The notes under the pieces are model-generated. The model saw nothing but the letters and a program-made list of their open reading frames with translations. It did not search any database and was not told the origin of the DNA. This document shows positions 254 to 59,623 of a stretch of 64,000 nucleotides of DNA, piece after piece. Source of the stretch: Chthoniobacterales bacterium (lineage in GTDB: Bacteria > Verrucomicrobiota > Verrucomicrobiia > Chthoniobacterales > UBA6821). The stretch is taken from positions 28,365-92,364 of the forward strand of contig JAIEQL010000005.1 of NCBI GenBank assembly GCA_019747735.1. Reading direction: 5' to 3'. A program made the translations under genes and the position numbers. Every line of letters starts with the position of its first letter. Within the stretch, counting starts at the first letter, position 1.

Positions 254-1087
254 ATGGATCTCCATTGTTCTGACAACCAACAACTCACAACTGACAACTC
301 TAAAAACCTTAGTAGGCACCCCCTTTCCATAGCGATTATTTCTTACAACGAGGAACGCACCCTTGCACGCTGCCTCCAAAGCATTGCGGATTTGGCCCAC
401 GAAATTGTCCTCGTTGATTCTGGTTCCCAAGATAAAACACTCTCCATTGCTGCTTCTTTTGGAGCCCGTATTATTCATCAACCATGGCTTGGATATGCAG
501 CTCAAAAAAATGTGGCTATAGATCATTGCACCCAATCATGGGTTCTGGCGCTGGATTGTGATGAAGAAGTCTCTCCAGAACTGCATCAAAGCCTAGTTCG
601 TTTTTTTGAAGAAGGGAGATACAAAGAGGTGCAGGGAGCTTCTTTTGCCCGTAAAACCTGGTTTCTAGATCGATGGATCACTCATGGAGATTGGTATCCT
701 GATAAAAAATTACGCCTCTTCCGCCGCGATCAAGCTCGCTGGATCAATCCTATTCATGAAAAAATTGCCTTAGAAGGGCCCGTCGTAACGCTTCCAGGAG
801 AGTTACTCCATTATTCTTTTCCCTCCATGAAATCTTACCTCGATAAGATCCATCCTTTTTCCGAAGCATTTCTCAAAGAACAGCGTCAGAAAAAAAAGCC
901 ATGGTCTCTTGGTGCCACTATCACGCACTCCCTATGGCGATTCTTTCGTGCTTATATTTTACGGTGCGGTTTTCTTGATGGCTTTCCAGGCCTTTGGATT
1001 GCTGTTGCTACGGCCTTTGCTGTTTTTGTGCGCTATAGCCGGCTTTACGAAGAGGAAAAGAGAGCCACCGAAAGCACAACTGAGTAA
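254..1087 (+). CDS. Family 2 glycosyltransferase (LPS/cell-envelope type)
   Basis: LSIAIISYNEERTLARCLQSI...VLVDSGSQDKT...ALDCDEEV (GT-A fold with DxD motif). It is the only ATG-initiated frame. The N-terminal ~20 codons run through a CAACTNN heptamer repeat. Confidence 0.8.
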   Translation: MDLHCSDNQQLTTDNSKNLSRHPLSIAIISYNEERTLARCLQSIADLAHEIVLVDSGSQDKTLSIAASFGARIIHQPWLGYAAQKNVAIDHCTQSWVLALDCDEEVSPELHQSLVRFFEEGRYKEVQGASFARKTWFLDRWITHGDWYPDKKLRLFRRDQARWINPIHEKIALEGPVVTLPGELLHYSFPSMKSYLDKIHPFSEAFLKEQRQKKKPWSLGATITHSLWRFFRAYILRCGFLDGFPGLWIAVATAFAVFVRYSRLYEEEKRATESTTE

Positions 1088-3544: not shown

Positions 3545-3632
3545 TATAGTGGATTAAATTGAAAAGAGCGCGTTAGAAGCGCTGAAATTTTTTGTTAAGA
3601 CAAGGCCGAAGAGTTTAGGCTATCCAAAGATA
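3545..3632. mobile_element. MITE family A, half copy (A1)
   Basis: tatagtggattaaattgaaaagag...aaggccgaagagtttaggctatccaaagata aligns to the left half of the full 164-bp copy at 34873-35036. The right terminal inverted repeat (TIR) is absent. Confidence 0.75.
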
Positions 3633-3688
3633 TCATTTTTTAATCTGTATTCCTGCAACCTAAGCCCCTGTAACCTGCAACCTGTTTT

Positions 3689-8642: not shown

Positions 8643-8823
8643 GAAAGTCTGCTAGTTGAAGTTATGTCGACTTTGCCTTCGGCAAAAAATTATTGTTTAG
8701 CCACATTAGCGGCCTGGTTAATACTTCAACTTTAACTTTTCACTTCAACTTTTATTCTAACAAGTAGATCTCAACTCACTCGTTTTAAAAAGCACTTCAA
8801 CATGAGCCTGTCGCTCAGCGACA

Positions 8824-11030: not shown

Positions 11031-11048
11031 TTCAAAATAAGAATAAGA

Positions 11049-15092: not shown

Positions 15093-17375
15093 TCACCAAT
15101 CCCTTGTGGTCTCTTCGGTATTTTGCTGTTGCTGTGAAAATGGGACACGACGTTCTTCATCTTCTACCGAGCGCAACACAGCTTCTGCCTGACTTAGGGA
15201 CATGCCATTATCATTTTCTTTTTCAGCAGCAGCAGTATTGGCCTCTTCTTTTTTCCCTTGTTCGCCACCACCCAGTGCTCCCTGCTTTTTCTCGGAAGGA
15301 GTTGGCGCAGCCTTTGATTGAGCTCCTTGCTCTTGAGGGGAAGGGGCATTTTGGTCAGCAGCAGAAGGAGAGGGTTGTTGTTTTTCTTTTTCTTGGTTAC
15401 CTCCAGCGGAAGGATTGTCCTTGTTCGAAGGAGGGGTAGGTTGAGGATTGTCGCCATGATCAGAGCCGCTATCTTTGTTGGGTTCTGCAGCAGAGGGTTT
15501 CGGCGAGGCTTGAGAATTCTCTTTTTGTTGATCTTGCTGTTTGGAAGAAGAATCTCCTGATGGTTGCTCTTGGGATGGTGGTGTAGAGTCAGACTTTTTA
15601 TCAGGGTTCTGAGTCGATCCATTATTTCCAGAAGAAGGTGGAGAATTCTCTTTTTGCTGATCTTGCTGCTGATTGTTTGGGTTGTTCTGATTATTTGAAT
15701 TGTTGGGATTACTCTTTTGCTTATCTTGCTTGTTGTTTTGATTATTTGGAGAGGATTGTTGAGGCTGGTTTTTAGGAGGTTCTTGCTCTTTTTCTTGTTT
15801 TAATTTTTCGATCATCTTTTTGACGAGATCGCGATTTTCTTGAGCATTTTTATTGTGAGGATCTGCTTTGAGCACTGTTTCATAATGCTGCAGTGCATTA
15901 TTCCAATCAGCCAATTTTTCTGCCTTTTTTTGAGCAGTCTCTCCTTGCCTCACAAGGGTATTAGCAAGGTTGTAGGTAGCCATTTGTTGAATCTGCTTAG
16001 AAGAAGAGGTCATTGCCTGGGTGAAATAAGTCTCTGCTTTTTTATAGTCTTGTTGCTTGTAGGCAGCTGCTCCTGCATCAAAACGAAGGGCTCGAGAAGG
16101 TGATCCTGACTGGATCTGCTGTTCAAAATCACGCAGTGCGTTGGCGTAATCTCCTTGGGCATAAGCTGAGAGGGGGTCTTGAAAAAGCCTAAAATCGCGT
16201 ATTGCGTCGTCGCTGCGGTGCTCGTCTCCTCGAGCATTAGATATACACTGTGGGACTACGCTCCTCGCTCCTGGCACTACATCAATTTTATTCATTTTCA
16301 AGTCACCCTCTGCGATTCCTGGTGAAGAGAAACATCCTAGTAATAACAGTGCCAATACAGCACTTTTCCTGCGACGTCGCTCACTAGACAAACACCAAAG
16401 TGTTAAAAAAAAGAGCGCCGTGGCAAGGGGCCATGCATAACGCTCTTGGGGGCGGCGCAGAGTAAGACTCGAAGTGTTACTCGCATTGAGCGGTAGGATT
16501 CCTTTTTCCACAATCGTGCGTACAGCATCACTCCCAAAGGGTTCATAAAATCCCCCTGTCACTTTTGAGATTTCTTGAAGTCGCTCAACATCAAGCTTTG
16601 AAAGAACCGGCTTTCCATGTTCGTCCCGGACAAAATCATTTTCTCCTAATTCATTTTTAATCGAAATCAAAGAGCCCTCCGCAGAGCCTATTCCAATCGT
16701 AAAAATTTTGATGTTCTGTGCCGCTGCCTCTTTAGCCGCGGTAACACCACTTGCTTCCAACTCTTCTCCATCAGTCATGAGAACAATCGAACGATCCCCT
16801 TCACTTTTTCCAAAAGCACTAATGGCCATTTTAATTGCTTCGGCAATATTAGTTCCTCCCATGGGAATCAAATTCATATCAAGATCGGCAAGCGCATCGG
16901 CAATCGCAGAATGATCGAGTGTCAAAGGAGCTTCTAAAAATCCCCTTCCCGCAAAAGCAACAAGACCAATTCGATCTCCTGGCAAAAGTTCTAATAAGTC
17001 TTGTCCCAAAAGTTGTGACCGCGCAAGTCGTGTGGGCGTGACATCTGTTGCCAACATACTGCGAGAGACATCGATGACGGCGATCACATCGCGACCTTGG
17101 CTTTTTACTTCGCGTTCTTCATATCCCTTGCGTGGTTGTGCCAGCGTGATAATGGCAAAAACAAATGCTAGCAGAAGAAAAAGAAAACGTACCCACCGCT
17201 TTGAGGCACTCACTCCTCCCACTAATGTACTGCGAAGCCTCATAGCAATTACCTTTGCCAGGAGGTGTTTCTTTTGTTCTTCAGTCCAATAAAAAAGAAA
17301 ACCTAACGGCAAAACAAACAACAGCAGCCAGAGGTAAGTACTATTGGCAAAAGTGAGAGGAGAAGATGAAAGCAT
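15093..17375 (-). CDS. BatB-BatC fusion protein (TM + VWA domain, internal lipobox-like signal, TPR domain, long Q/N/P/S-rich tail)
   Basis: VWA MIDAS motif DVSRSML, then a TM helix (YAWPLATALFFLTLWCL), then RRRRKSAVLALLLLGC (signal/lipobox-like), then TPRs (YAQGDYANALRDFEQ..., YKQQDYKKAETYF..., ATYNLANTLVRQGE...). One uninterrupted frame. Confidence 0.8.
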   Translation of the reverse strand: MLSSSPLTFANSTYLWLLLFVLPLGFLFYWTEEQKKHLLAKVIAMRLRSTLVGGVSASKRWVRFLFLLLAFVFAIITLAQPRKGYEEREVKSQGRDVIAVIDVSRSMLATDVTPTRLARSQLLGQDLLELLPGDRIGLVAFAGRGFLEAPLTLDHSAIADALADLDMNLIPMGGTNIAEAIKMAISAFGKSEGDRSIVLMTDGEELEASGVTAAKEAAAQNIKIFTIGIGSAEGSLISIKNELGENDFVRDEHGKPVLSKLDVERLQEISKVTGGFYEPFGSDAVRTIVEKGILPLNASNTSSLTLRRPQERYAWPLATALFFLTLWCLSSERRRRKSAVLALLLLGCFSSPGIAEGDLKMNKIDVVPGARSVVPQCISNARGDEHRSDDAIRDFRLFQDPLSAYAQGDYANALRDFEQQIQSGSPSRALRFDAGAAAYKQQDYKKAETYFTQAMTSSSKQIQQMATYNLANTLVRQGETAQKKAEKLADWNNALQHYETVLKADPHNKNAQENRDLVKKMIEKLKQEKEQEPPKNQPQQSSPNNQNNKQDKQKSNPNNSNNQNNPNNQQQDQQKENSPPSSGNNGSTQNPDKKSDSTPPSQEQPSGDSSSKQQDQQKENSQASPKPSAAEPNKDSGSDHGDNPQPTPPSNKDNPSAGGNQEKEKQQPSPSAADQNAPSPQEQGAQSKAAPTPSEKKQGALGGGEQGKKEEANTAAAEKENDNGMSLSQAEAVLRSVEDEERRVPFSQQQQNTEETTRDW
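16170..16310. mobile_element. MITE family B, full-length copy embedded in frame in the batB/C ORF (B4)
   Basis: Both TIRs are present (gagggggtcttgaaaaa ... ttttcaagtcaccctc). The copy aligns along its whole length to the intergenic copy at 45810-45950. It is 141 bp (47 codons) and is read as EGDLKMNKIDVVPGARSVVPQCISNARGDEHRSDDAIRDFRLFQDPL. Confidence 0.85.
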
Positions 17376-17377
17376 TT

Positions 17378-18415
17378 TTAGGGAATTTTTCTAAAATAAC
17401 TCTGGGACAAAACCATCTCTGCAAGTAGCAGCAGCGTTCCCAAGGCAACAAACCACCAGAAAAAATCTTGATTATTCACATTTTTCTCTATTTCAATTTT
17501 GCTTTTTTCTAATTTATCGATTTCCTTAAACGTCTTATCTAAAGAGGTAGAATCAGCTGCGCGGAAATATCTTCCCTTTCCAATAGTGGCAATATCTTGC
17601 AAGAGTTTTTCATCAAAATCAAAAATCACTTGCTTATAAAAAACTCGCCCAAACTGATCCTTAACTGGTACAGAAACAGGTCCATTGCTTCCAGCACCAA
17701 CAGTATAAATACGAATTCCCAGAGCTTGGGTAGCCTCTGCTGCAGTAAGTGGCATCACTTTGCCTGCATTGTTGGAGCCATCGGTAAGCAGAACGATGAG
17801 TTTTGTTTTTGCCGTGCTTTTTTTTAAGCGGGCTGCGGCTGCTGCCAAAGCCGATCCGATGGCCGTCCCATCTTCAACAAGTCCGAGCTGTACGCGATCG
17901 AGATTTTGAATCAGCCACTCATGATCCAACGTAATGGGACTAACCAAATAGGGACGCCCCGCAAAAGCAATAATCCCAATACGGTCATTGGGACGTCCTT
18001 CAATAAATTGCTCGGTCACTCGCTTGACTGCCTCTAAGCGACTGGCAGGCTGATTGCCAATAGTATAATCCTCGGTAGACATCGATCCAGAAACATCGAG
18101 GACCAGCATGATATCAATACCGCTTGCTTTAATATGTTGTAAGGTTTGTCCCAGCTGAGGGCGTGCAAGAGCAATAATGAATAATGCCATCGCACCATAA
18201 ATCAGCGCCGCCAGCAAAGATCCTGAACGTGCTCGACGAGGCTGCCCAAGCTTGAGAACTAAACTGGTAGAGGAAAAAAGAACTCCAGGGCTTCCTCCAA
18301 ATCGCCCTCGCAGCCAAGCAAGAAGAGGCAATCCAAGGAGTCCAAACAGGACCCAAGGATGAACAAAGGAAAAGTCGCCGTGTGGCGTTGTAAGAATTCC
18401 TTGAGAAAAATGCAT
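17378..18415 (-). CDS. BatA-like VWA-domain membrane protein
   Basis: N-terminal TM helices, MIDAS motif DVSGSMS, C-terminal TM. Sits 2 nt upstream of batB/C. Confidence 0.85.
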   Translation of the reverse strand: MHFSQGILTTPHGDFSFVHPWVLFGLLGLPLLAWLRGRFGGSPGVLFSSTSLVLKLGQPRRARSGSLLAALIYGAMALFIIALARPQLGQTLQHIKASGIDIMLVLDVSGSMSTEDYTIGNQPASRLEAVKRVTEQFIEGRPNDRIGIIAFAGRPYLVSPITLDHEWLIQNLDRVQLGLVEDGTAIGSALAAAAARLKKSTAKTKLIVLLTDGSNNAGKVMPLTAAEATQALGIRIYTVGAGSNGPVSVPVKDQFGRVFYKQVIFDFDEKLLQDIATIGKGRYFRAADSTSLDKTFKEIDKLEKSKIEIEKNVNNQDFFWWFVALGTLLLLAEMVLSQSYFRKIP

Positions 18416-18418
18416 CTG

Positions 18419-18946
18419 TTATCCTCCCTGAATAAAATGTTCTGCTGCTCTAATCAAGGCGTGGCGGTCCTCTTGGGTTGCGCGGCCTCCAGCAAATTTT
18501 AAAAGATCCGATTTTTCTAAAAAGAGTTTGAGAGATTCTTGCTCCGCACTGGTAAAACGATCGCTATGACGCAACGATTCCAAAAACTCTTCGGTTGTCT
18601 GCCGTGGAGCCGCTAGCCCAAAAACCATCCCAAGATAACTACGAAGCAATCCGGAAACGAGAATCCCAAACTCATGATCACTTCCCTCCATAAGTTTATT
18701 CTTCATCGCTGTAAGAGCCTCTAAAGCTGCTTGGCGAGGTGTCAGTGATTTTTTCTGACGCCATTTTTTAATTCCAAAAAAGAGGCCTATTCCCAGTAAT
18801 ACTAGAAACGCAGCCCCCAAAAGAAGTTGCGTTGGTGTATAAGAAAAAAAAGAGACTGGCCCTACAATGTCATGCAAAGGAGCTGGGGCAGCCGCTGGGA
18901 GGCTATTAGGGGAAACAAAAGAAGAAAAATTAGGGGTTTGGTTCAT
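18419..18946 (-). CDS. Small single-TM protein of the Bat operon (DUF4381-like)
   Basis: 175 aa with one TM (LLLGAAFLVLLGIGLFFGI) followed by a helical domain. Position between the DUF58 gene and batA matches the canonical operon. Confidence 0.55.
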   Translation of the reverse strand: MNQTPNFSSFVSPNSLPAAAPAPLHDIVGPVSFFSYTPTQLLLGAAFLVLLGIGLFFGIKKWRQKKSLTPRQAALEALTAMKNKLMEGSDHEFGILVSGLLRSYLGMVFGLAAPRQTTEEFLESLRHSDRFTSAEQESLKLFLEKSDLLKFAGGRATQEDRHALIRAAEHFIQGG

Positions 18947-19141
18947 AAACGATGAGAACAGGCTATAGGCTGCAGGCTATAGGTAGGCTGCAAAGCGCTT
19001 CACGCTTGATTTCTAAAATACCATCGTTTTTGCGATGGCGAAGAATCAACTGAGAACTGGCAACCGAGAACCGACAACTTTTTTCAATTTGAAAAAATGG
19101 CAAGAATTCCGATTTCATTTTCATTCTAAAATCACCTTAAC

Positions 19142-21196: not shown

Positions 21197-21419
21197 TGTT
21201 TTTAAAAGTGTAAGGGTTGAGAAGTTTAGGAGCTTAGGTTGGAACAGAAAAAAACCGAATTAAAAAAATCTGAGATAGCTTATTCAAATGACAACGCAAA
21301 GATCAATTCGTTCAAAAAAATTTTTCCACCCAAGTAATCAGTTAGATATTACGTCTCTATCTTAAATTTACTTGAAGTTAAATTTAAACGCACTAGGACT
21401 CTTGGGCTCTACTTAAATT

Positions 21420-24535: not shown

Positions 24536-26008
24536 TTATGCTCTAGAGTTGCAAAGCCTCTTAAAATGAACTTTCAGAACGCGCTTGCCATCACTCTCTT
24601 TGACGGTAACTCGATAATCTCCTATCAAAACCTCGTCACCTCGTTGGGGTAAGTGATCCAAAAGCTGCGTAATATATCCGGCGATCGTGCTTACCTCTGC
24701 TCCTTCAAAAGAAAGCTCTGTTATTTCGGCTAGATCATGTAAGGCAAAGGATCCCGTTATTTCAAATTCATCTTCATTAATTTTTTTAAATTCTTCTTCG
24801 TTATCAAATTCATCTTGAATAGAGCCAACCAACTCCTCGAGCACATTGTCCAAGGTGACAATGCCAACAGCACCTCCATATTCATCAATAGCAATCGCTA
24901 AATGGGCATGCCGACTTAAAAAAAACGAGAGCAATTTTTCCAGTGGCATCATTTCTGAAACATGCAGAATAGGATGTTGAATGGAAGCAAGCTGTTTCCC
25001 ATTGGCTTCTATTCGCTGTGGCTCTGATTCAACAACATCAGCAGAGGATCTTTCACCAGAGAAAGCAGGATGATAAAATACTTTTCCTAAAAGATCTTTG
25101 ATATGAACAAATCCAGAAGCTTCATCGAGCTCTCCAGAGCAGATAGGAAAACGCGTATGTTGTGAGCTGATGACTTTGGCAAGCTCCTCCTGAAAATTTT
25201 TTTTAAGATCAAAGATAATGACATCGCTTCGTGGTGTCATGATATCGCGCACCACATGATGGCGGAGATCGAACGCGTTGAGGGCTAGCTTTTGACCAAG
25301 AGGGGTAATTTCTTCGCTTTTGGTGCTCTCTCCTAAAATCAAACGCAACTCCTCTTCACTATGAAACAATGCTGTTTCGTTAGCCGGTTCTAGCCTCAAG
25401 ATATGGCGGAGTAAAAAATTGGAAGAGCTATTAAGCAAGCTAATAGCTGGGCGAAAGAGTGTATAAAAAGTTGTTAAAAAAGGACTCAGCCAGAGCGCTG
25501 TGGGAATCGCTTTTCGAATGGCGAAGGTCTTAGGAGCTTGTTCTCCGAGAACTATGTGGAGAAAAGTAATACCAGTAAAAGCGAGGAGAAAAGAGACCGA
25601 AGAAGTAATTTTGCACGAAGTAATGCCGCATGCAAAAAAAAGAGGTGTGATTAACGAATTTAAAAAAGGTTCCCCAACCCATCCTAGCCCAAGGCTTGCA
25701 AGAGTGACCCCTAATTGTGTCGCCGAGAGGTAAACATCGAGATGATTAATGATATGTTGGACTCGTCGAGCATGCGGATATTTTTCTTTAACGAGTGTCT
25801 CTACTTGGCTGGAGCGGATTTTAACGATGGCAAACTCCGAAGCCACAAAGAGAGCGTTGAGCAAGACCAACAAAAAAATAACCAGCAACTTCAAAAAAAT
25901 GATTTCCCCAAAACCCAAAAAAGCAGGTTCCGCGCTACTGACCGAAGGCTGAAGGCTGAAGGCTAAAGGCAGTACCTGTAAGGAAACTAGAAGCATGGTA
26001 GTTACCAC
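24536..26008 (-). CDS. CNNM/HlyC/CorC-family transporter (DUF21 + CBS pair + CorC_HlyC)
   Basis: LLNALFVASEFAIVKIRSSQV (DUF21), a CBS pair, and the C-terminal ...GDEVLIGDYRVTVKESDGKRVLKV. The first ~30 codons read through an AGCCTTC heptamer repeat, so the true start is uncertain. Confidence 0.85.
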   Translation of the reverse strand: MVTTMLLVSLQVLPLAFSLQPSVSSAEPAFLGFGEIIFLKLLVIFLLVLLNALFVASEFAIVKIRSSQVETLVKEKYPHARRVQHIINHLDVYLSATQLGVTLASLGLGWVGEPFLNSLITPLFFACGITSCKITSSVSFLLAFTGITFLHIVLGEQAPKTFAIRKAIPTALWLSPFLTTFYTLFRPAISLLNSSSNFLLRHILRLEPANETALFHSEEELRLILGESTKSEEITPLGQKLALNAFDLRHHVVRDIMTPRSDVIIFDLKKNFQEELAKVISSQHTRFPICSGELDEASGFVHIKDLLGKVFYHPAFSGERSSADVVESEPQRIEANGKQLASIQHPILHVSEMMPLEKLLSFFLSRHAHLAIAIDEYGGAVGIVTLDNVLEELVGSIQDEFDNEEEFKKINEDEFEITGSFALHDLAEITELSFEGAEVSTIAGYITQLLDHLPQRGDEVLIGDYRVTVKESDGKRVLKVHFKRLCNSRA

Positions 26009-36450: not shown

Positions 36451-36492
36451 AAGATCAGTTGAAGTTGTTTAGCGGTTTAGGAGTTTAGAGGT

Positions 36493-37602
36493 TTAGGAAG
36501 TAATAATCTTCTTAAAATTATTTTCCTCGATATGAATGATTCCAATTTCGCGCAAGAAGCTCTCCTTCGAGTCGGAAGCGTGAGCACTGTTGACCATAAT
36601 ATTTTGGCCAAACTCTTTGCGAATAGTTCCATGAGGAGCTTTAGAAGGGTCTGTGGGACCGAGAACTTCGCGAATTTTTCGTACTGCATCTTCTCCTTGA
36701 TAAATGAGCGCAATGCAACGCTCTGTTCCAGGGTGCGCATGCTTTTCTTCAGGATATTCTGAAGGACGTGCTCCCGACATGAACGCGATGATCGACTCCC
36801 AGTGGATCCGACCGTCAGGAAGTTTTGCCTCCAGCACTTCGAGAACGGGTCCATAAAACTCCTTTGCCTGCGCCACGCTCATGTTTTGGACTTTAAAACC
36901 AACAAGAGCGAGTCCTGTGCGTGCTAAGAGGTCGATAATGGCGCCGGGGCGCATGTTAGGGAATTTAAAATTGTCTGGTTTGATGAGCACCAACGTTTTT
37001 TCAAGAGCGGTTCCTTCAGCAAATTCCGAAGTCACATCGAGAATGCCTCCCTCTTGATCGGAATGAGCGGCTAAGAGCGCTAATCCTTCTTGAGCCTCTT
37101 GCAGAGTAGTAGGAGCAATGATTCCTGGTTCAAAATAAAAAACATCTGCGTTTTCCTCTTCTTCTACTTCGATCAAAAAATGCTCACTATAAATATCCCT
37201 CAAGGTCTCTCCTCGGCCATCCATGCTCTCATCATCCCCAACAATGGCGCTAATTTTTTTGATAGCATCAGCTCCCTGAAAAAGAAGAGCAAGAAGCTGG
37301 CGCTGCTCGCCAAAAAAAGAATCACTGTTTAAGTAGTGAGCGGTGAGCTCTTGCTCGTTCAAACTGGCGGCAAGGCCTTGGGCAAGCTTTTCGCTAGGAT
37401 TAAAAAAACGTCCTCCGACAAGCTCTAATCCTGATTGAGAAATAAGCCGGGATAAGATACCACCTGTACGTCCTTTGCGAACAGAATGAGGGGTAATGAG
37501 CACATAGGTAAGTTGATGAGACACGGGTAATAAGTAGGAGAAGAATTTAAAAATAAAGGATAAAGGGGCAGCGAACGTATTAGAGATCTTAGCAAGAGTC
37601 AA
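36493..37602 (-). CDS. Tandem nucleoside-diphosphate-kinase-domain protein (degenerate N-terminal + catalytic C-terminal NDK domain)
   Basis: C-terminal domain: TLVLIKPDNF...GPTDPSKAPHGTIRKEFG...NSAHASDS (catalytic His). N-terminal domain: YVLITPHSVRKGRTGGILSRLI...LLFQGADAIKKISAIVG, without the NxxHxSD motif. A GTG at 37524 is a plausible alternative start. Confidence 0.7.
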   Translation of the reverse strand: MTLAKISNTFAAPLSFIFKFFSYLLPVSHQLTYVLITPHSVRKGRTGGILSRLISQSGLELVGGRFFNPSEKLAQGLAASLNEQELTAHYLNSDSFFGEQRQLLALLFQGADAIKKISAIVGDDESMDGRGETLRDIYSEHFLIEVEEEENADVFYFEPGIIAPTTLQEAQEGLALLAAHSDQEGGILDVTSEFAEGTALEKTLVLIKPDNFKFPNMRPGAIIDLLARTGLALVGFKVQNMSVAQAKEFYGPVLEVLEAKLPDGRIHWESIIAFMSGARPSEYPEEKHAHPGTERCIALIYQGEDAVRKIREVLGPTDPSKAPHGTIRKEFGQNIMVNSAHASDSKESFLREIGIIHIEENNFKKIITS

Positions 37603-38799: not shown

Positions 38800-38839
38800 A
38801 GTGTTTGCTAAAATCCTCTTTGTTGAAATTTGAGTCTGG

Positions 38840-38920
38840 AGTTTGAGTTTGAGTTACCTTCGCGCTTCGCGCATCTTAAAAAATAAAGCGCGAAGCGCCT
38901 ATTAAACTCAAACTCAAACT
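38840..38920. repeat. Family E palindromic element, intact (E2)
   Basis: agtttgagtttgagttaccttcgcgcttcgcgc...gcgcgaagcgcctattaaactcaaactcaaact. Followed by the conserved gctagcactcaaactt box. Confidence 0.75.
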
Positions 38921-39011
38921 GCTAGCACTCAAACTTTCATCACATACAATTTTGTTTTCTTTAAATGAATACGACTACAATGATTGATGACGCTTCCTAA
39001 CTAATTTCCCT

Positions 39012-45674: not shown

Positions 45675-45701
45675 GGTAAATAGGCTAAAGGCTAAAAGTG
45701 A

Positions 45702-45808
45702 AAGGCCGAAGAGCCAGGGCTATATCTTATAACGAGAGTAATGAGAACGCAGTCTTTTCCTGAAAAGATCACGTCAATTTTGTGTAATTTCTAAGTAATT
45801 TGACTATA
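45702..45808. mobile_element. MITE family A variant, half copy (A5)
   Basis: aaggccgaagag...gatcacgtcaattttgtgtaattt...gactata is the reverse complement of the left part of 49810-49964. Directly abuts MITE B1. Confidence 0.7.
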
Positions 45809-45809
45809 T

Positions 45810-45950
45810 GAGGGTGTCTTGAAAATGAATAAAATTGATGCAGTACCAGGAGCGAAGCGCACAGACCCGCAGTGTATATGGACATACTCGAGGACGCGAG
45901 CACTGGAGCGACACCGTAATGCGCAATTTTAGTCTTTTCAAGACACCCTC
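45810..45950. mobile_element. MITE family B, full copy (B1)
   Basis: 141 bp. TIRs gagggtgtcttgaaaa ... ttttcaagacaccctc. Confidence 0.85.
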
Positions 45951-46100
45951 TATAACTCAATAGCTTCCTTTATTCGTTTTATAAGCATATTCAAAGATTT
46001 TGCTTGAATATGACATCCTGGTAGAGAAGGAACAGACGCGACAAAAAAAACCTTCTGAATCACGTTCAATAATAACATTGAATTCATTTCTTTTATTCAT
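45950..46100 (-). pseudogene. hicB-like antitoxin remnant (frameshifted and truncated)
   Basis: ATG at 46100. Removing one T from the T8 run (plus-strand A8 at 46043-46050) gives MNKRNEFNVIIERDSEGFFVASVPSLPGCHIQAKSLNMLIKRIKEAIEL*, the HicB N-terminal-domain pattern (y.v.ie.d..g.yva.vP.LPGC..qg.t..ea....keAi). The stop is formed at the edge of MITE B1. Confidence 0.6.
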
Positions 46101-49809: not shown

Positions 49810-49964
49810 TATAGTCAAAAATTACACAAAATTGACTTGATCTTTTCAGAAAAAGACTGCGTTCTCATTACTCCCGTTCTAAGATAGAGCGCTCTCTCTT
49901 CGGCCTTGCTTTTTCTAAAAATTTCTGCACTTCTACCATGCCTTTTTTAATTTAATACACTATA
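49810..49964. mobile_element. MITE family A variant, full copy (A4)
   Basis: The left end tatagtcaaaaattacacaaaattgac is shared with A5. The right half ...cttcggcctt...atttctgcacttctaccatgccttttttaatttaatacactata is shared with A2. TA flanks. Confidence 0.75.
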
Positions 49965-53447: not shown

Positions 53448-55784
53448 TCAAAGCAACGATTGCGGATCGACATCAATGGTAACAACAATTCCCTTGGGTG
53501 AGGGAAGAGACTTAAGAGCTGAATGGACTAGTCTCTGCATGGTCTTGATGGAGGGGCTTCGTAAAGCAAGATGAAAACGATATTGCCCATGTGTTTTTTC
53601 CAAAGGAGCAGGAACGGCTTCACCTACATGAATTGAAGAAGCAGCCCCGTTTTGAAATTTTTTTGCTAGAACCGCTGCGTGAAGAGCAACAGCTTCACGC
53701 AATACACCTCTGACTTGAAGCAAGATCATTCGTTGAAAAGGAGGATATCCAAACTGTTTTCGAAACTCCATTTCTTGCTCAAAAAACCCATGATAGTCGT
53801 GGTGACGTGAAAATTGAATAGAGGGACTTGTTGGTGTGAATGTTTGAATCATCACCTCTCCTTCACGATCACCGCGTCCAGCACGCCCCGCCACCTGTGT
53901 TAGAAGCTGAAATGTTTTTTCTCCTGCACGAAAATCGGGAGCGTGCAAGCTGGTATCAGCATTGATAATACCAACCAAGGTAACATTTGGAAAATCGAGC
54001 CCCTTAGCAATCATCTGAGTTCCAATAAGAATATCAATATGGCGAGCCCTAAATTGTTGAAATATTTCTTGATATGATTTTTTATGGCGCATTGTATCAG
54101 CATCCATCCGAAAACTACGTGCTTGAGGAAATGCTTGTCGGACGGCGGCTTCGACGCGTTGCGTCCCAACCCCTGAATAAAGAATTTCGGTACTACGGCA
54201 CTCAGGACAGGCTGTGGGTGGCTTTTCAATATGGCCACAGAGATGACAGATAAGTTTTTCCGTAACGCGATGAAACGTTAAGGACAAACTGCAATGTGGG
54301 CATGTAGAGGCTGTTCCACATTGTGGGCAAAGAAGAGCGCTGGAAAAACCGCGCCGATTTAAAAAAAGAATAATTTGTTCAGAACGCTCCAAGCGTAATT
54401 CTATCGCTTTGCGCAGCGGAAAAGAGAGAACGCTGTCAGCTCCTTTTTGTTTCCCTTGCAAACGGAGGTCGAGAACGCGCACGAGAGGCATTTTTTGTTG
54501 ATCAGCACGTTGCGGAAGTTCTAGCAAATGATATTTTTTAAGACGCGTATTTTGATAACTCTCGAGCGAAGGGGTCGCGCTTCCCAAAATGATGACGCAT
54601 TGCTCATAGTGGGCACGCATGACAGCCACATCACGCGCGTGATAGCGTGGCGTTTCCTCTTGTTTGTAGCTTGTCTCGTGCTCTTCATCGACAATGATGA
54701 GACCGAGATTTTGCAAAGGAGCAAAGATGGCACTTCGTGCTCCAATGACCACACGAGCCTCACCATGATACAAACGCAGCCATTCATCATGACGCTCCCT
54801 TTGAGAAAGATGACTGTGGAGTACAGCAATCAGTTTTCTCTCTCGCGTGGACTCTAATCGTGCTCGAAAGCGCTCTACTGTTTGTGGAGTAAGCGCAATT
54901 TCGGGAACCAAAACAATAACGGATTTGTCCAGGGAAAGCGCTTGCTCCATAGCGCGTAGATAAACTTCGGTTTTTCCACTGCCCGTCACGCCATGAAGCA
55001 AGAAGGGCTTTGGCGCTTGCTGAGAATGTTCCCGTTTTGTAAGTTCCTCACAAAGGAGCTGGACGACGTGCTCTTGATCTCGATTGAGCTTAGGAATAGG
55101 ACTAGGGAGTAACTCTTCTCCAGCAAAGAGATCAGATTCTATGGGCTGCTCCTCAATAGCGATCCATCCCGCGTTCATTAGTCCTTTTAGTGAGGCTGAA
55201 GAAGCTTTCGTTTTTTCTAATAGCAACGAAAGCTCTTTTTTTTCTTGCGCAAGAAGCATCTCTTCAAGAATGGCTTTTTGCTTGGGAGCCCTCTTACCAA
55301 GAGCCTCTAGAGTTGCCGCTGTCGGTTTTTTTAATAAAGAAACAAGGCGCTTTTTTTTTGCTGCTAACGAATCATTGCGAATAGTAGGAGGCAAGATTGA
55401 ACGCAAGACTGCGTCCAAAGAAGTGCAGTAATAATCAGCAATCCAATGTGCTAATTTCATGAGAAGAGGAGAAAGAAGCGGTTTGTTTTCTTCCTCCATC
55501 GTTGCATGATCAATGACAGCAAGGATCGGTTTGATTCCAGAAAACGAACAAGCCGAGTGCAACGATAAAACAACTCCCATGGCTTCTTTCCCTCTCAAAG
55601 CGACGCAAACGCGGCTTCCTACAAGAATGCGAGACGCCAACTCTTTTGGAACTGCATAGTCAAGTTGGGTTCCTTGGGTGCGATCAATCAGAATACGGGC
55701 GTAACCGCTACCATGCAGCGGTAGTTCGCAGTTGGCAGTTAACAGTTGACAGTCGCTTCGCGGTGTTCGGAACTTGTAGTACAA
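53448..55784 (-). CDS. priA: Primosomal replication-restart helicase PriA
   Basis: GVTGSGKTEVY, IVDEEHE, and the Cys-rich zinc region CPQCG...CPHC...CHLCG...CPEC. TTG start. The first ~25 codons read through a CAACTGN heptamer repeat. Confidence 0.9.
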   Translation of the reverse strand: MYYKFRTPRSDCQLLTANCELPLHGSGYARILIDRTQGTQLDYAVPKELASRILVGSRVCVALRGKEAMGVVLSLHSACSFSGIKPILAVIDHATMEEENKPLLSPLLMKLAHWIADYYCTSLDAVLRSILPPTIRNDSLAAKKKRLVSLLKKPTAATLEALGKRAPKQKAILEEMLLAQEKKELSLLLEKTKASSASLKGLMNAGWIAIEEQPIESDLFAGEELLPSPIPKLNRDQEHVVQLLCEELTKREHSQQAPKPFLLHGVTGSGKTEVYLRAMEQALSLDKSVIVLVPEIALTPQTVERFRARLESTRERKLIAVLHSHLSQRERHDEWLRLYHGEARVVIGARSAIFAPLQNLGLIIVDEEHETSYKQEETPRYHARDVAVMRAHYEQCVIILGSATPSLESYQNTRLKKYHLLELPQRADQQKMPLVRVLDLRLQGKQKGADSVLSFPLRKAIELRLERSEQIILFLNRRGFSSALLCPQCGTASTCPHCSLSLTFHRVTEKLICHLCGHIEKPPTACPECRSTEILYSGVGTQRVEAAVRQAFPQARSFRMDADTMRHKKSYQEIFQQFRARHIDILIGTQMIAKGLDFPNVTLVGIINADTSLHAPDFRAGEKTFQLLTQVAGRAGRGDREGEVMIQTFTPTSPSIQFSRHHDYHGFFEQEMEFRKQFGYPPFQRMILLQVRGVLREAVALHAAVLAKKFQNGAASSIHVGEAVPAPLEKTHGQYRFHLALRSPSIKTMQRLVHSALKSLPSPKGIVVTIDVDPQSLL

Positions 55785-55922: not shown

Positions 55923-55995
<73 letters not shown>

Positions 55996-56068
55996 GATTC
56001 TGAAAGAGGGATAAACTTAAAGAGTTTTTTTTTGTGGAGCAAGCTGCAAAATAGCGAAGAGTCTATGA

Positions 56069-56233
56069 GAGGGTGTCTTGAAAAGACTAAAATTGCGCAT
56101 TACGGCGTCGCAGGGAGGTACGTCATTCCCGCGAAGGCGGGAATCGCGTCCTCGAGTATGTCCATATACACTGCGGGTCTGTGCGCTTCGCTCCTGGTAC
56201 TGCATCAATTTTATTCATTTTCAAGACACCCTC
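56069..56233. mobile_element. MITE family B copy carrying a nested family F hairpin (B2)
   Basis: 165 bp with both TIRs intact. Relative to B1 an internal segment is replaced by gcagggaggtacgtcattcccgcgaaggcgggaatcgcg (hairpin at 56121-56146). Confidence 0.85.
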
Positions 56234-56351
56234 TGAGTAAGAGGTGAAGAGTGTAAAAATAACTGCGAAATGATTCTTTACTCTTCACTGCCCTCTAAAC
56301 TATTTGTTTCGTAGCTTCCAGCATAGGAGCTTAGTAAACAGCGGGATCTAG

Positions 56352-57758
56352 CTAAAATACAACCCCCATTTGAGCGCCTAACACCAGTGCATTAGCAATA
56401 GAAGCGCTTCCACCAGGGTTGATGACCCACTGTATATCTGGCTGAAAATAAGCAAATTTCGTGAGCAAGATGCGATAGCCACCTTCATAAACAAGTTCAT
56501 ACGTTCGATTTCCATTACCAGCAGCTTCCTGGACGCCTGCGTAGCTTGTGCTGAAATTTCCATAAGCTGCGCCAAAGATAGTGAGGTCTTCGCTGCGACC
56601 AGGAATAAGGCCGGTATAAATAGCGCCAGCATTGACTTGAAAGGGGAGCAAAGAAATATTTTGTTGTGGACTCAAGGCACAAGCTGACCAAAGTACTAAT
56701 CCTTTGTCGCTAGTGGGTTCAGGCCGATAGACTGTTTGATCGGCATGCCAATAGAATCCGTAGGCATTGGGTATTTGAAGGGTGCTGTTAAATTGAGAAT
56801 ACTCCATACTCGAGTAATATCCGCCCATCCAATAATGACCTTGAAATCCTTTAATTACGCTAGCAGGAAGATTAGTGCGGGAACCCGGTGGTTTTACAAA
56901 GAGATCACGAGCCTCTTTCATTTTATTAGTAGGTTGTGCTCGATGAGAAAAAGAGGACTTAAAAAATTCTGGAGTCCATTCGTATTGACTGAAAAGCATT
57001 ACTCCATTACTGGGATAAAAATTCCAATTAAGGCCATTAGTGGAAGGTTGAGGTACGGCTTGATAAACGCCGAGCTTCAAGAGCATGTCAGCAGGAAGCT
57101 TCGCTTTTAAATAACTTCCCCAGGTAGCATTGGGGCAAACAGAGGCTCGGCTATTGACCGGCACAGCTTGGATCATGCCATCAATTCCATTATTCATATA
57201 CAGCCAATAAAGAGGAGAGGTCTCAAAATCGTCTCCCACAGCAATACGCCCTATCTTAAGGCTGACTCGATCATTCCAAAAATCTTGTTGGTAAGAGAGC
57301 TGATACCAATGGATGGTAGGTCCTCCATAAATCTGCTGGACGGTAAATGCGTTGCGAATATTTTGCTGCGAAAGATTGGAGCCATCACGTTGGATCGCAC
57401 TCACCATGAAATAACCACCATGCCATCCAAAAAGTTTTTCTGTTTCCACAAGACACGCAAAAGCAAAGCTATCTGTGTAAGTAAACCCACCGGGACTTTT
57501 TCCGCCGACAGGATTGCCAGCCATATCAGCGGTGTAAGTAATCGAAGGCCCTACTCCTTTTGATTCCAAGCTCTCTCGCCAGCCAAACCAATTTCCCGAA
57601 GCACGTTCATACTCCATGATGGTATGAGGCACATCTGCAATGGTGTTGTAAGGAGAATTTTCTGATAGGTTGAGGCCATTGGTCGTAGAGAGCAGAGCAG
57701 CTTGAAGAGACGTTGAAAAGCAGAGTACTGTTGCTGTAAAAAAATGAAGAGGGCGCAT
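56352..57758 (-). CDS. oprB: OprB-family carbohydrate-selective porin
   Basis: Signal peptide MRPLHFFTATVLCFSTSLQA. Aromatic-rich beta-barrel pattern, C-terminal ...LGAQMGVVF, about 470 aa. Confidence 0.7.
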   Translation of the reverse strand: MRPLHFFTATVLCFSTSLQAALLSTTNGLNLSENSPYNTIADVPHTIMEYERASGNWFGWRESLESKGVGPSITYTADMAGNPVGGKSPGGFTYTDSFAFACLVETEKLFGWHGGYFMVSAIQRDGSNLSQQNIRNAFTVQQIYGGPTIHWYQLSYQQDFWNDRVSLKIGRIAVGDDFETSPLYWLYMNNGIDGMIQAVPVNSRASVCPNATWGSYLKAKLPADMLLKLGVYQAVPQPSTNGLNWNFYPSNGVMLFSQYEWTPEFFKSSFSHRAQPTNKMKEARDLFVKPPGSRTNLPASVIKGFQGHYWMGGYYSSMEYSQFNSTLQIPNAYGFYWHADQTVYRPEPTSDKGLVLWSACALSPQQNISLLPFQVNAGAIYTGLIPGRSEDLTIFGAAYGNFSTSYAGVQEAAGNGNRTYELVYEGGYRILLTKFAYFQPDIQWVINPGGSASIANALVLGAQMGVVF

Positions 57759-57847
57759 GATCAGTGCTAAATTATTTTTTTTGATTAGCCGAAGGCCTTA
57801 CTATAGCCTAAAGCCTTTAGCCTATAGCCTACAGCCTTTCTATCAAT

Positions 57848-58528
57848 ATGAGTTTTTCAATGTACTTTCTCCTCATTGGCGTGCCTCTTCTCTTAGGTCT
57901 TTGGGCACAACTGCGCGTTAGTTCTGCTTTTAATCGTTACAAAAAAATCGGCGTTAGCTCTGGATTTACCGGAGCAGAAGTAGCACAAAAAATAATCGAT
58001 GCGGCTGGATTACAGGATGTCTCCATCCTTCCAGCAGAAGGGATCATGAGCGATCATTACGATCCCTCTAAAAAGTGCTTACATCTTTCCTCTGATGTTT
58101 TTTATGGCAACTCGATTACTTCGGTAGGTGTTGCTGCACATGAGTGTGGTCATGCACTTCAACATCAGGCCGATTATGGGCCTTTAAAATTGAGAACACT
58201 GCTAGTTCCTGCCACTCAATTTTCCTCAAAACTTCTCCCTTTTGTGATTCTTGGAGGATTCTTTTTTCATCTGGCAAATTTAATCACACTTGGAATTGCT
58301 TGTTATGCGGTTCTTGCCGTTTTTCAATTAATAACCTTGCCTGTAGAATTTGATGCTTCTTCTCGCGCTAAAGTAACATTGAAAAAAATGGGCATCATCC
58401 AATCATCAGGTGAGATTAAAGGTGTCGATGCTGTTCTTGATGCCGCTGCTTGGACCTATATTGCAGCTTTTGTAGCAGCCATTGGAAATTTGATTTACCT
58501 CATGATGATCCGGCGTGAACAACGTTAG
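57848..58528 (+). CDS. Membrane zinc metallopeptidase (Zn_peptidase_2 type)
   Basis: N-terminal TM, ...HYDPSKKCLHLS..., HExxH as AAHECGHALQH, C-terminal TM helices. Confidence 0.85.
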   Translation: MSFSMYFLLIGVPLLLGLWAQLRVSSAFNRYKKIGVSSGFTGAEVAQKIIDAAGLQDVSILPAEGIMSDHYDPSKKCLHLSSDVFYGNSITSVGVAAHECGHALQHQADYGPLKLRTLLVPATQFSSKLLPFVILGGFFFHLANLITLGIACYAVLAVFQLITLPVEFDASSRAKVTLKKMGIIQSSGEIKGVDAVLDAAAWTYIAAFVAAIGNLIYLMMIRREQR

Positions 58529-58631
58529 AGCGCATATCTTTCTCGGATGAATTTTAGCTTTATTTATTTTTGGGCCAAAGCCCGAAGATCCCTCAAAACC
58601 AAACTACAAGCACTCAAACTTCTTCATAGAC

Positions 58632-59435
58632 ATGTCTTTTTTGACTCAACCTCCAGTTGTTCTCTCTATTGCTGGTTCTGATTGCTCTGCAGGAGCTGGC
58701 ATTCAAGCCGATCTCAAGACGTTTAGCTCTTTTGGTTGTTATGGCCTCACGGCAGTAACCTGTATTGTTGCCGAGATTCCTGGAAAAGTTGTTTCTATTC
58801 AACCGATCGAACCAAAGATTGTGAGGGATCAGATTGCTCTTCTTTTTAAAACATATCCTATAGCCGCTTTTAAGACCGGAATGCTCTTTTCAACTCCTAT
58901 TATTGAGGTGTTGGCGGAAGTCCTTGGTGAACTCAAATCCCCCCCTTTACTTGTTATCGATCCCGTCATGATTGCTAGTAGCGGTGATTCTTTACTAACT
59001 CCAGATGCTATCAATGCTTATTACCATCATCTTTTTCCAAGAGCTTCCTTAATCACGCCCAACCTTGATGAATTGACCTTCTTAGCGGGAGGTATAAAAA
59101 TACCACGCTCTCTTGAAGAGATGGGGCAGCTGGGACTTCACCTTATGAAAAAAATCAACAAACCACTTTTACTTAAAGGGGGGCACCTTAAGCAAAAAGA
59201 AGCGACAGACCTTTTGCTTATGCCTGACGGAAGCGAAGAACTATTTTCAGCTCCCTTTTTTAAAAATGCAGAAACGCATGGGACTGGATGTACCTACTCT
59301 GCAGCCATTACAGCAGGACTTGCCAAAGGCAACTCACTTTCAAGGGCCATCAGCGAGGCTAAGTCCTTCATTACCCAAGCCATCATCAATACCCATCAAT
59401 GGGGTGAGGTGAGAGCCTTGAAACAGACTCGTTAG
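58632..59435 (+). CDS. thiD: Hydroxymethylpyrimidine/phosphomethylpyrimidine kinase
   Basis: VLSIAGSDCSAGAGIQADLKTF, ...KGGHL..., GTGCTYSAAITAGLA. Confidence 0.85.
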   Translation: MSFLTQPPVVLSIAGSDCSAGAGIQADLKTFSSFGCYGLTAVTCIVAEIPGKVVSIQPIEPKIVRDQIALLFKTYPIAAFKTGMLFSTPIIEVLAEVLGELKSPPLLVIDPVMIASSGDSLLTPDAINAYYHHLFPRASLITPNLDELTFLAGGIKIPRSLEEMGQLGLHLMKKINKPLLLKGGHLKQKEATDLLLMPDGSEELFSAPFFKNAETHGTGCTYSAAITAGLAKGNSLSRAISEAKSFITQAIINTHQWGEVRALKQTR

Positions 59436-59508
59436 GTAGCGCTCGAACACTTTTACTTTTTAGAGCATCATTAAAAAAATTTGCAGTCGATGCAGTGCCA
59501 GGAGCTGA

Positions 59509-59623
59509 GAGGGTGTCTTGAAAATGAATAAAATTGATGCAGTACCAGGAGCGAAGCGCACAGACCCGCAGTGTATAGGGACATACTCGAGGACGCGAGC
59601 ACTGGAGCGACGCCGTAATGCGC
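59509..59623. mobile_element. MITE family B, 3'-truncated copy (B3)
   Basis: Left TIR gagggtgtcttgaaaatgaataaaattgatgcagtaccagg... aligns to B1 up to ...gccgtaatgcgc. The right TIR is missing. Confidence 0.75.

Follow-up and report, generated by a model that had tools for sequence, protein, structure and literature searches.

How is a start codon chosen when the sequence directly before it is a tandem repeat with almost no G and no Shine-Dalgarno (SD) element? The question is raised by a stretch of 64,000 nt from a Chthoniobacterales bacterium (assembly GCA_019747735.1, contig JAIEQL010000005.1; this whole stretch is the window), a genome of a soil- and freshwater-type, low-GC clade of this verrucomicrobial order, in which a Zn-peptidase gene follows an array of AGCCTNN heptamers and several unlinked genes follow arrays of the same or of other G-poor units. 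We favor, at roughly even odds (a probability of about 0.5), the hypothesis that the selected trait is an unstructured, G-poor landing zone free of SD elements and of start codons, and that tandem duplication is what builds it. Across the clade the composition of start regions is conserved, and the repeats come and go.

On the forward strand the focal array (57801..57837) comprises 5.3 imperfect AGCCTNN copies (CTATAGC register in TRF; period 7, 83% matches, score 53) and ends 10 nt 5' of the ATG at 57848. Positions 57801-57847 read ctatagcctaaagcctttagcctatagcctacagcctttctatcaat; from 57805 to 57847, divided into units, the letters are agcctaa agccttt agcctat agcctac agcc tttctatcaat, followed by the ATG. 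With up to two mismatches, AGCCTNNAGCCTNNAGCCT has seven matches in the window, at three loci (18960-85, 25946-71 and 57805-37), against a mean of 0.23 in the shuffled window, where seven was reached in 0 of 100 shuffles; strict self-repeat runs of 5-9 nt number 12, against 0.15 in Markov shuffles. Because both counts lie far above those of shuffles, the repeat is real and non-random. A further repeat test, the recurrence of 5-mers (13 observed versus 8.7 in shuffles), was dropped as homopolymer noise. The open reading frame (ORF) at 57848-58528 encodes a Zn_peptidase_2 protein of 226 aa according to Pfam, and since nearly all homologues have 226 aa and align over 100% of the protein, translation probably starts at the ATG at 57848, four codons before the start given in the public gene call.

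Rfam covariance models yield nothing at E<=1 around the focal site (57650-58700), and we therefore rejected a known structured RNA family, such as a riboswitch or leader. Dispersal of the AGCCT arrays as one element was rejected too, the alignment identity being confined to the arrays with the flanks unshared, and the focal array has neither the partner arm nor the common flanks of a palindromic element like a miniature inverted-repeat transposable element (MITE) or a repetitive extragenic palindromic (REP) sequence. Six nucleotides 5' of the array lies a GCCGAAGG motif (57788..57795, forward strand), a small GC hairpin with a GAA(G) loop that also occurs 10-40 nt 5' of other G-poor leaders (3605, 8676, 28654, 28693 and 45705). 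GCCGAAGR occurs 15 times in the window against 4.1 expected, and similar hairpin-plus-leader modules precede LemA and rhodopsin genes in the relative L003.

The start-region statistics cover 43 ORFs of the window, with coding-sequence samples as controls. Periodicity was scored over -43..-4 at periods 6-8 as a Z value against shuffles of the same 40 nt, and Z>2 was taken as strong; this was reached at 7 of the 43 start regions and in 4 of 129 coding samples (Fisher p=0.006). In each of the seven strong arrays the sense strand has G<C, and 4-16 nt separate the end of the array from the ATG. The initial annotation had placed G-poor repeats of period 7 before many starts. The repeats are real, and "many" proves too generous, since they are strong at about one-sixth of the genes and reach at most one-quarter when weak cases are included; seven of the ten examples that it gave are periodic, and the leaders of thiD, ispA (Z=1.0) and mreC (Z=1.3) are G-poor and not significantly periodic. 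Its gene names (Zn_peptidase_2, DUF4381, amtB, aminotransferase, MoxR, CesT, ThiD, polyprenyl synthase, MreC) agree with Pfam.

The seven strong arrays differ widely in unit. AGCCTNN is found before the Zn-peptidase gene (Z=5.5 at period 7; 5 G and 13 C), before an ORF of 468 aa that has no Pfam match (Z=3.6; 45675..45700, reverse strand, units AGCCTTT and AGCCTAT ending 7 nt before the ATG at 45674) and before the DUF4381 gene (Z=2.5; 18958..18992, reverse strand, about four units of which one is interrupted, ending 11 nt before the ATG at 18946). The array of the 468-aa gene abuts a dispersed repeat of about 100 nt (45695-45797). Before amtB the units are AACCTRN (Z=2.4; 3652..3688, forward strand, cctgcaacctaagcccctgtaacctgcaacctg, ending 4 nt before the ATG at 3689; 6 G, 14 C); this leader is predicted to be unpaired and lies about 20 nt from a MITE-like repeat, and its CCTGYAA unit also heads several genes of L003. 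The aspC-like aminotransferase gene has CTAAACCN four times and then CAACTTCAACTG (Z=4.0; 36451..36497, reverse strand; 2 G, 13 C), filling the whole 42-nt gap from the stop of the ndk-containing ORF at 36493 to the aminotransferase ATG at 36450; the minimum free energy (MFE) of 81 nt here is -3.2 kcal/mol. The moxR leader (Z=3.7; 21197..21241, reverse strand, ATG at 21196) has an 8-nt period (ccaaccta agctccta aacttctc aaccctta), 1 G, 13 C and an MFE of -1.7 kcal/mol. Finally, the leader of the CesT-like chaperone gene (Z=5.0; 32698..32740, reverse strand, ATG at 32697) consists of two copies of the 16-mer CTTCAACTCTTAAACC, with 0 G and 12 C; its first copy can pair with an upstream GTTTAAGAGTT arm (-15.9 kcal/mol, z=-3.2). 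The thiD leader (58590..58622, forward strand), with 1 G in 40 nt and Z=-0.1, is an 82% copy of a dispersed 33-nt element also present at 33872 and 38905, and is predicted to fold into a 5' hairpin followed by about 45 unpaired nucleotides.

Three more arrays, which could be leader or N-terminal coding sequence, are placed downstream of the first in-frame start of the longest ORF and ahead of the conserved protein core. The CNNM/CorC array (25944..25970, reverse strand; AGCCTTC x3.9) is either a leader 25 nt before a TTG at 25918 or an N-terminal extension from an ATG at 25996; at the matching place the L003 orthologue has a different array, CTGYAAC x4. The array of a GT2 glycosyltransferase gene (273..299, forward strand; ACAACYN x3.7) follows the only canonical start, ATG 254, by 20 nt and precedes the conserved domain. 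The priA array (55723..55753, reverse strand; YAACTGN x4, cgactgt caactgt taactgc caactgc) lies inside the longest ORF, upstream of the conserved PriA N-terminus. The PriA orthologue begins MSYARILID, and near that point the window has no in-frame ATG, GTG or TTG; an in-frame CTG follows the array by 4 nt, and the 5' end (55690-55784) also holds an out-of-frame ATG in a small hairpin and a short overlapping ORF. The start may be non-canonical, the assembly may contain an indel, or the protein may extend by 25 residues from TTG 55784. At the ndk-containing ORF (36493-37602) the NDK domain occupies residues 201-357 of 369, so the true start is probably internal, near 37000, in which case part of 37000-37602 is non-coding or holds another small gene. 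Gene callers that expect an SD misplace starts in this genome, with the Zn-peptidase four codons short and priA, CNNM and ndk ambiguous.

G depletion is a general property of the start regions of the window. Over -40..-1 the 43 ORFs average 13.6% G and 22.7% C, with G<C in 30 and G=C in four (sign test p=0.001), and G falls from 23% at position -60 to 10-13% in -18..-1. These last 18 nt before the start are where an SD would lie. When any pairing with ACCUCCUUA at dG<=-3.5 is counted as an SD, 5 of 43 starts (12%) have one, against 32% of coding controls, which bears out the earlier statement that GGAGG-like elements are missing. This scarcity is not an artefact of mis-called starts, because the in-frame ATG, GTG and TTG codons in the early part of the ORFs show no SD enrichment (19.7% with SD-like 5' sequence versus 19.1% at other codons). 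The start regions are also open: the mean MFE of -35..+15 is -4.1 kcal/mol, compared with -8.3 for coding sequence (p=2e-10), and the value is 0 to -3.1 kcal/mol where arrays lead (-0.4 for the Zn-peptidase), these leaders having 0-7 G per 40 nt and being unpaired in predicted folds. Leaders average 1.34 start-like triplets in -45..-1, fewer than the 2.05 of the antisense strand and the 2.54 of coding sequence, and 14 of 41 leaders, versus 3 of 41 on the antisense strand, have none at all.

Strong SDs are kept by a few genes. GGGAGGA precedes batA (17378..18415), a run of GAGGGGAG precedes a PIN-domain gene, and the SD-like agaaagagggg-ATG noted earlier is indeed present at 31970-31980. GAGGAGG-type purine runs precede batA in the relatives L207 and L208 too, which suggests that a canonical anti-SD still exists in the clade. 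The relatives compared for SD use were L001/L206 (GCA_964724675.1), L003 (GCA_019747895.1), L207, L208 and Terrimicrobium sacchariphilum (L209). SD pairing is found at 0-11% of starts in the low-GC relatives L001/L206, L207, L208 and L003, and at 62% in the Terrimicrobium locus (13 genes only, operon-rich), which suggests, on this small and operon-rich sample, that the initiation regime has switched within one order, the Chthoniobacterales. The initial annotation called the leader architecture lineage-specific; this fits the G-poor, SD-less regime that is common to the low-GC relatives, and does not fit the heptamer arrays, which occur before starts in many phyla and one of which, TAACTGA, has been published (PMC4679880).

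The second line of evidence is orientation. We counted non-coding arrays of period 6-8 in the window and 17 related loci, together with ORFs of at least 120 aa that start within 60 nt. The G-poor strand faces an ORF start in 16 cases, the G-rich strand in two, both in one and neither in 13 (p=0.0013), a clear bias relative to the downstream gene. Arrays in the opposite orientation do exist, as had been noticed earlier. At 8723..8752 (forward strand), 80-110 nt upstream of mreC, the mreB/mreC sense strand reads GTTGAAGT-type repeats that are complementary to ACTTCAAC in the mreC leader, and at 19047..19078 (forward strand), just 3' of DUF58, lies CAACTGA GAACTGG CAACCGA GAACCGA. These two, together with 33872-33902 and 38829-38855, lie just 3' of genes and are G-rich on the sense strand of the gene.

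Palindromic geometry could produce such a bias without selection. The element at 38829..38937 (forward strand) consists of a TTTGAG hexamer arm, GCGCTTCGCGC/GCGCGAAGCGC hairpins and an AAACTC hexamer arm, so that its 3' arm is the G-poor one on either strand; a similar arrangement is found in L003 (19868/19972), and a second copy in the window (33629-33904) is split by a MITE. As a general cause we rejected this geometry, which accounts for a minority of cases only, because 12 of 14 leaders have no significant complement in the 260 nt upstream; the lowest z values were -1.9 for the Zn-peptidase, in a stretch that overlaps the coding sequence of the divergent gene, and -1.7 for CesT. Arrays within palindromic or dispersed elements are limited to thiD, the leader of the dnaJ-like gene, the 3' end of ispA and mreC, and the inverted arms and dispersed copies typical of MITE and REP elements are found for the AAACTC element (38829-38937/33629-33904) and the thiD leader copy.

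The third line of evidence comes from orthologous leaders. At thiD a periodic, G-poor leader is present in 9 of 13 relatives, and the units are unrelated: GCAATNA, TTCATCC, TTCCNACC, a TTCAGGT-like unit and an 8-mer. In two of these relatives, L130 and L132, the leaders have common flanks and differ by substitutions and in copy number (TTCATCC x5 versus about 3.5). Because thiD leaders persist while their units are replaced, selection on a physical property can be separated from selection on a motif. The Zn-peptidase leader is periodic and G-poor in about 3 of 18 relatives by inspection; in L003 (72% identical protein) it has a different, CCTGCAA-type array with an inverse arm, and a near-consensus promoter, TTGATA-N16-TATAAT, lies between the arms just upstream of that array. 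The moxR leaders of the two closest of the relatives sampled (L206 and L207) have 0-1 G in 40 nt and no array. DUF58 and DUF4381 overlap or abut in four relatives, with no array there, and so the window carries an insert of 195 nt (18947-19141) that holds the DUF4381 array. This insert contains an A/T palindrome, a G-rich array, a terminator-like hairpin (CCATCG..CGATGG, then T-rich sequence), a GAAG-loop hairpin and the G-poor array, and it looks like a repeat module that has split an operon. In the GC-rich relatives L130-L137 the Zn-peptidase ATG is preceded, at a distance of about 20-60 nt, by a conserved block, TTGAAC...cTGgTATGAT (extended -10-like), which is probably the promoter; the leader after it lacks an SD and is about 20 nt long.

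Based on these observations we propose the following mechanism. Ribosomes of this clade would find most start codons without SD pairing, and the 20-45 nt before the start would be kept G-poor on the mRNA strand. Such a stretch would form no stable G-C or G-U pairs with itself, contain no SD-like purine run and hold no AUG, GUG or UUG; being unstructured and free of start codons, it would offer the 30S subunit an open, single-stranded place to land, which ribosomal protein S1 presumably holds and in which no start codon would precede the authentic AUG. We infer that the arrays are transcribed as 5' untranslated region (UTR), where they would promote or permit initiation with the involvement of S1 and could act as enhancers. 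A few G-poor units (AGCCTNN, AACCTGY, CTAAACCN, AAACTC and YAACTGN) would be duplicated by local slippage or arrive in small repeat modules, arrays beside a start would survive only when the G-poor strand is in the mRNA, and the periodicity would be a mutational footprint, not a signal read by anything.

Several observations weigh against this hypothesis. Arrays are dispensable: the Zn-peptidase array is absent from a close relative (L001, 81% identical protein), and four relatives, one of them with a 92% identical MoxR, lack the moxR and DUF4381 arrays, and this lack of conservation lowers our confidence that the repeat itself is selected. No start adjoins 13 of the 32 non-coding arrays in the related loci (about 40%), and, of the 19 intergenic arrays that TRF finds in the window, only about 6-7 have a start within 50 nt, so that enrichment by position is weak when taken by itself. 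The same units recur at unlinked loci, which a pure composition model leaves unexplained: AGCCTNN is present at 4-5 loci of the window, and 20 kb of L003 contain four CTGYAAC sites, upstream of three genes. When 96 nt are folded, the focal leader forms a modest hairpin (-17.1 kcal/mol, z=-1.2). Two scans for sigma-70-type promoters gave only weak and inconsistent matches in the array leaders and do not settle whether the arrays sit inside transcripts, and a TATAAT 7 nt before the CesT ATG would permit a leaderless mRNA.

The evidence from other phyla is likewise mixed. A scan for AGCCTNN x3 in one genome per species gave at least 120 loci, in a collection where about 1,000 chance matches are expected by our estimate, and the matches listed come from Acidobacteriota, Planctomycetota, Verrucomicrobiota, Desulfobacterota/Myxococcota, Cyanobacteria, Hydrogenedentes, Parcubacteria and others. 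Because 53 of the 116 scored arrays among these matches extend to at least four units, the arrays do go beyond chance, and many lie directly before SD-less ATGs (e.g., L025, L026, L047, L070, L112 and L113). Their orientation bias is only moderate and counts, with the observations above, against our hypothesis: among the matches listed, 24 intergenic AGCCTNN arrays have an ORF start within 80 nt on the G-poor side only and eight on the G-rich side only (p=0.007). The longer AGCCTNN arrays listed (13 versus 6) and the non-AGCCT arrays in the listed loci (16 versus 10) show no significant bias.

The alternative that survives best is that the arrays are neutral, microsatellite-like products of slippage or fragments of small mobile or palindromic elements, arising anywhere between genes and with no positive role, and that selection merely removes copies that would bring G-rich, SD-like, structured or start-codon-containing sequence before a gene. 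We regard this as unlikely; the landing-zone hypothesis departs from it only in crediting an array with some benefit where this alternative has it merely tolerated. Dispersed repeat families are abundant throughout the window; the thiD leader and the arrays of amtB and the 468-aa gene are copies of such repeats or adjoin them, the DUF4381 array came with its insert, and the absence of arrays in a close relative, the arrays away from starts and the strand-independent geometry of the palindromic elements (38829-38937; L003 19868/19972) would all be expected. The suggestion of an origin by repeat expansion, made in the initial annotation, is right for how the arrays arise; it leaves their orientation unexplained, the palindromic contribution being minor with 12 of 14 leaders lacking a significant complement. 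The persistence of a periodic, G-poor thiD leader in 9 of 13 relatives despite full unit turnover also argues against pure neutrality, set beside the roughly 3 of 18 for the Zn-peptidase.

A second alternative, which we consider quite unlikely, is that an RNA-binding protein of the OB (oligonucleotide/oligosaccharide-binding) fold reads the leaders in heptad register, either a cold-shock-domain protein with one heptamer per monomer or the domains of S1, and so defines a post-transcriptional regulon in which it keeps the leader single-stranded and recruits or represses ribosomes, as has been proposed for the TAACTGA repeats discussed below. The dominant period of 7, the recurrence of AGCCTNN, CCTGYAA and YAACTGN at unlinked loci of this genome and its relatives, and the AGCCTNN arrays before start codons in many phyla are consistent with this idea, as is Bacillus subtilis CspB, which, as reviewed in PMC4679880, binds heptamer repeats with one protein per heptamer. 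The window itself has at least five unrelated unit families, periods of 6-8 and a 16-mer; orthologous leaders swap units or lose their arrays in close relatives; amtB, aspC, moxR, thiD and the peptidase and chaperone genes have no common function; and no candidate protein is encoded in the window. A site for a single sequence-specific protein, as had been suggested earlier, is doubtful because it is hard to reconcile with at least five unit families and with the swapping of units among orthologous leaders.

An extension of this alternative would have wider reach. G-poor heptamer arrays, AGCCUNN and its relatives, might constitute a second widespread kind of bacterial ribosome-binding site (RBS), read in heptad register by OB-fold proteins and arisen repeatedly in lineages without SDs, a proposition that we rate as decidedly doubtful. 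If it were true, S1 domains or cold-shock proteins would keep the leader open and pass it on to the 30S subunit, and the recurrence of units in Acidobacteriota, Planctomycetota, Cyanobacteria, Desulfobacterota and Verrucomicrobiota would reflect a shared reader, not a shared mutation bias.

We consider it very unlikely that the arrays act at the level of DNA or transcription, as a promoter-proximal spacer, as an operator-like site or as a Rho-loading, rut-like site at which C-rich, G-poor RNA would couple transcription to prompt translation. An excess of C over G is the hallmark of rut sites, and the composition of the arrays fits; their length of 25-45 nt is below that of typical rut sites. 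The L003 promoter just upstream of its array would suit a promoter-proximal function, and heptamer repeats of Nostoc affected the action of a regulator at a promoter in reporters (bioRxiv 10.1101/2022.06.06.494920). A promoter is unlikely at aspC because the array fills the 42-nt intercistronic gap, the scans show no consistent promoter geometry, and the diversity of units argues against a single DNA-binding regulator.

Least credible of all are contingency loci in which copy number switches or tunes expression by phase variation: a 5' UTR position, the G-free unit of Haemophilus influenzae (PMC12721329), the copy-number difference between L130 and L132 (at species level) and a complementary G-rich arm near some arrays (mreC, CesT and the L003 Zn-peptidase) recall such loci, but the arrays have 2-5 imperfect units (83% matches in the focal one), short and imperfect enough that a low rate of slippage is expected, the downstream genes (amtB, aminotransferase, moxR, thiD, Zn-peptidase and ispA) are housekeeping genes and not surface, virulence or restriction genes, and the L004 and L005 assemblies of the locus, with 1 mismatch in 3325 nt, represent the same strain and so give no data on variation.

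The landing-zone hypothesis bears on a more general problem, since how starts are chosen without SDs is an open question for Bacteroidia, many Cyanobacteria and Verrucomicrobia. The leaders described here offer a compact, sequence-defined handle on it, with next to no G, structure or decoy starts, few units and a locked orientation. G-free repeat leaders could also serve as portable expression elements for SD-independent hosts.

The remaining features of the window provide context. Its G+C content is 44%, and the nearest named homologues of its Zn-peptidase and MoxR are from Chthoniobacterales/Spartobacteria metagenome-assembled genomes (72-86% identity); the MoxR of T. sacchariphilum is 75% identical. 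Its genes include amtB, mreB/mreC, the moxR-DUF58-DUF4381-batA-batB-batD operon, a CNNM/CorC transporter, ndk, the aspC-like aminotransferase, ispA, the CesT-family chaperone, an M24 peptidase, a DnaJ-like protein, priA, an OprB porin, thiD and a UvrD/PDDEXK helicase. The CesT-family gene (32179-32697), a type III secretion chaperone by family, adjoins a PTS EIIA-like gene. In the whole window, Rfam models at gathering score find a single tRNA and no rRNA gene; the tRNA gene (55923-55995, reverse strand) lies directly upstream of priA, an order also found in L001.

Dispersed repeats are also found elsewhere in the window. One family, MITE-like, about 165 nt long and bounded by terminal inverted repeats TATAGTGGATTAAATTGAAAAG, is present in two full and two half copies (3545-3632, 33706-33875, 34873-35036 and 49896-49964), one full copy being inserted in the palindromic element at 33629-33904. 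A repeat of about 150 nt (GAGGGTGTCTTGAAAA..., palindromic inside) has copies that are 87-100% identical at 45810-45951, 56068-56237, 59505-59623 and 16241-16312, the last of which lies inside batB, where an in-frame insertion makes the product about 28 residues longer than its L206 orthologue (760 versus 732 aa). Inverted pairs of ATAGCCACAAAAGAACNCAAAGAAA and TTTCTTTGNGTTCTTTTGTGGCTAT, 60-100 nt apart and often followed by a T-run, are found at 11045/11123, 14932/15040, 20056/20160 and 40147/40244; the ORF starts at 11078 and 15033, which copies of this family overlap, are probably mis-called. This family is kept in L001 and L003, where the T-rich strand often lies directly before start codons, and the pairs could be a bidirectional terminator or a regulator site.

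How does this architecture compare with known systems? Like REP sequences, bacterial interspersed mosaic elements (BIMEs) and MITEs, some window arrays are dispersed, with inverted arms and GC hairpins, and the repeat modules lie between co-directional genes and can enter operons; unlike in them, partner arms and dispersed flanks are missing from the focal array and from most of the rest. Surveys of heptanucleotide repeats in prokaryotes, as simple sequence repeats or as short tandemly repeated repetitive sequences (including the cyanobacterial ones), describe abundance and not a start-proximal, strand-specific, G-poor placement. In Nostoc, heptamer repeats close to the recF and recO start codons had weak effects in reporters (bioRxiv 10.1101/2022.06.06.494920). 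The 5' UTR of hmw1/hmw2 in H. influenzae contains a G-free (ATCTTTC)n tract, n>=11, which has a G-rich arm as pairing partner; its copy number matters, and it causes a phase variation of adhesins that depends on RNase III (PMC12721329). The window arrays share with it G-poor heptamers in the position of a 5' UTR, and differ in having 2-5 imperfect copies where hmw has at least 11 perfect ones, in preceding housekeeping genes instead of adhesin genes and in mostly lacking a complementary arm. The omega leader of tobacco mosaic virus (TMV) is G-free, consists of ACAAUUAC repeats and a CAA tract, and is an SD-independent enhancer in Escherichia coli through S1. The window leaders are likewise G-poor, built of repeats, predicted to be unstructured and next to the AUG; unlike them, omega is a single viral leader in a heterologous host, and no homology is implied. 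An account in PMC13577412 likewise has the TMV 5' leader translated by E. coli ribosomes without an SD.

The initiation regime has a close published parallel. Verrucomicrobiales and Bacteroidia globally lack SDs (PMC10798248), and in Bacteroidia, Cyanobiaceae and Verrucomicrobiales initiation is SD-independent, with SD frequencies below chance (PMC10798248; PMC10783764); Akkermansia is listed as SD-scarce with a conserved CCUCC. In SD-avoiding regimes of the Bacteroidia/Verrucomicrobiales type the canonical CCUCC of the 16S rRNA is kept but functionally occluded. The window resembles this regime in that SDs are rarer than in controls (5 of 43 versus 32%) and leaders are G-depleted. The published regime concerns the order Verrucomicrobiales, whereas we describe a low-GC subclade of Chthoniobacterales, and tandem-repeat leaders are not part of that description.

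The closest precedent for the arrays themselves is the TAACTGA heptamer repeats of Beggiatoaceae. MacGregor (2015) described 169 sets of these repeats in one Beggiatoaceae genome, with two to six copies in tandem, mostly forward, ending one to a few nucleotides before start codons and without an RBS; they also occur in Cyanobacteria and a few Bacteroidetes, and S1, Csp or CsrA were suggested as readers, as proposals only (PMC4679880). The Mrazek 2007 survey, as cited there, found heptanucleotide repeats to be the commonest tandem repeats of longer unit and proposed an origin by slippage. As in the TAACTGA system, the window arrays have 2-5 copies, with a period of 7 repeated 5.3 times at the focal site and of 6-8 elsewhere; they are forward, close to the start codon and without a recognisable RBS, their downstream genes have no common function, and some copies lie inside the 5' ends of ORFs. 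In the TAACTGA system one unit dominates the genome, whereas the window, from another phylum, the Verrucomicrobiota, has at least five unrelated G-poor units of 6-8 nt (among them AGCCTNN, the commonest, AACCTGY, CTAAACCN and AAACTC, beside the 16-mer), and only three small YAACTGN arrays (55723-55753, 281-300 and 19047-19059) resemble TAACTGA. What is new relative to that description is the turnover of units at orthologous leaders and the finding of such arrays in a host clade that avoids SDs.

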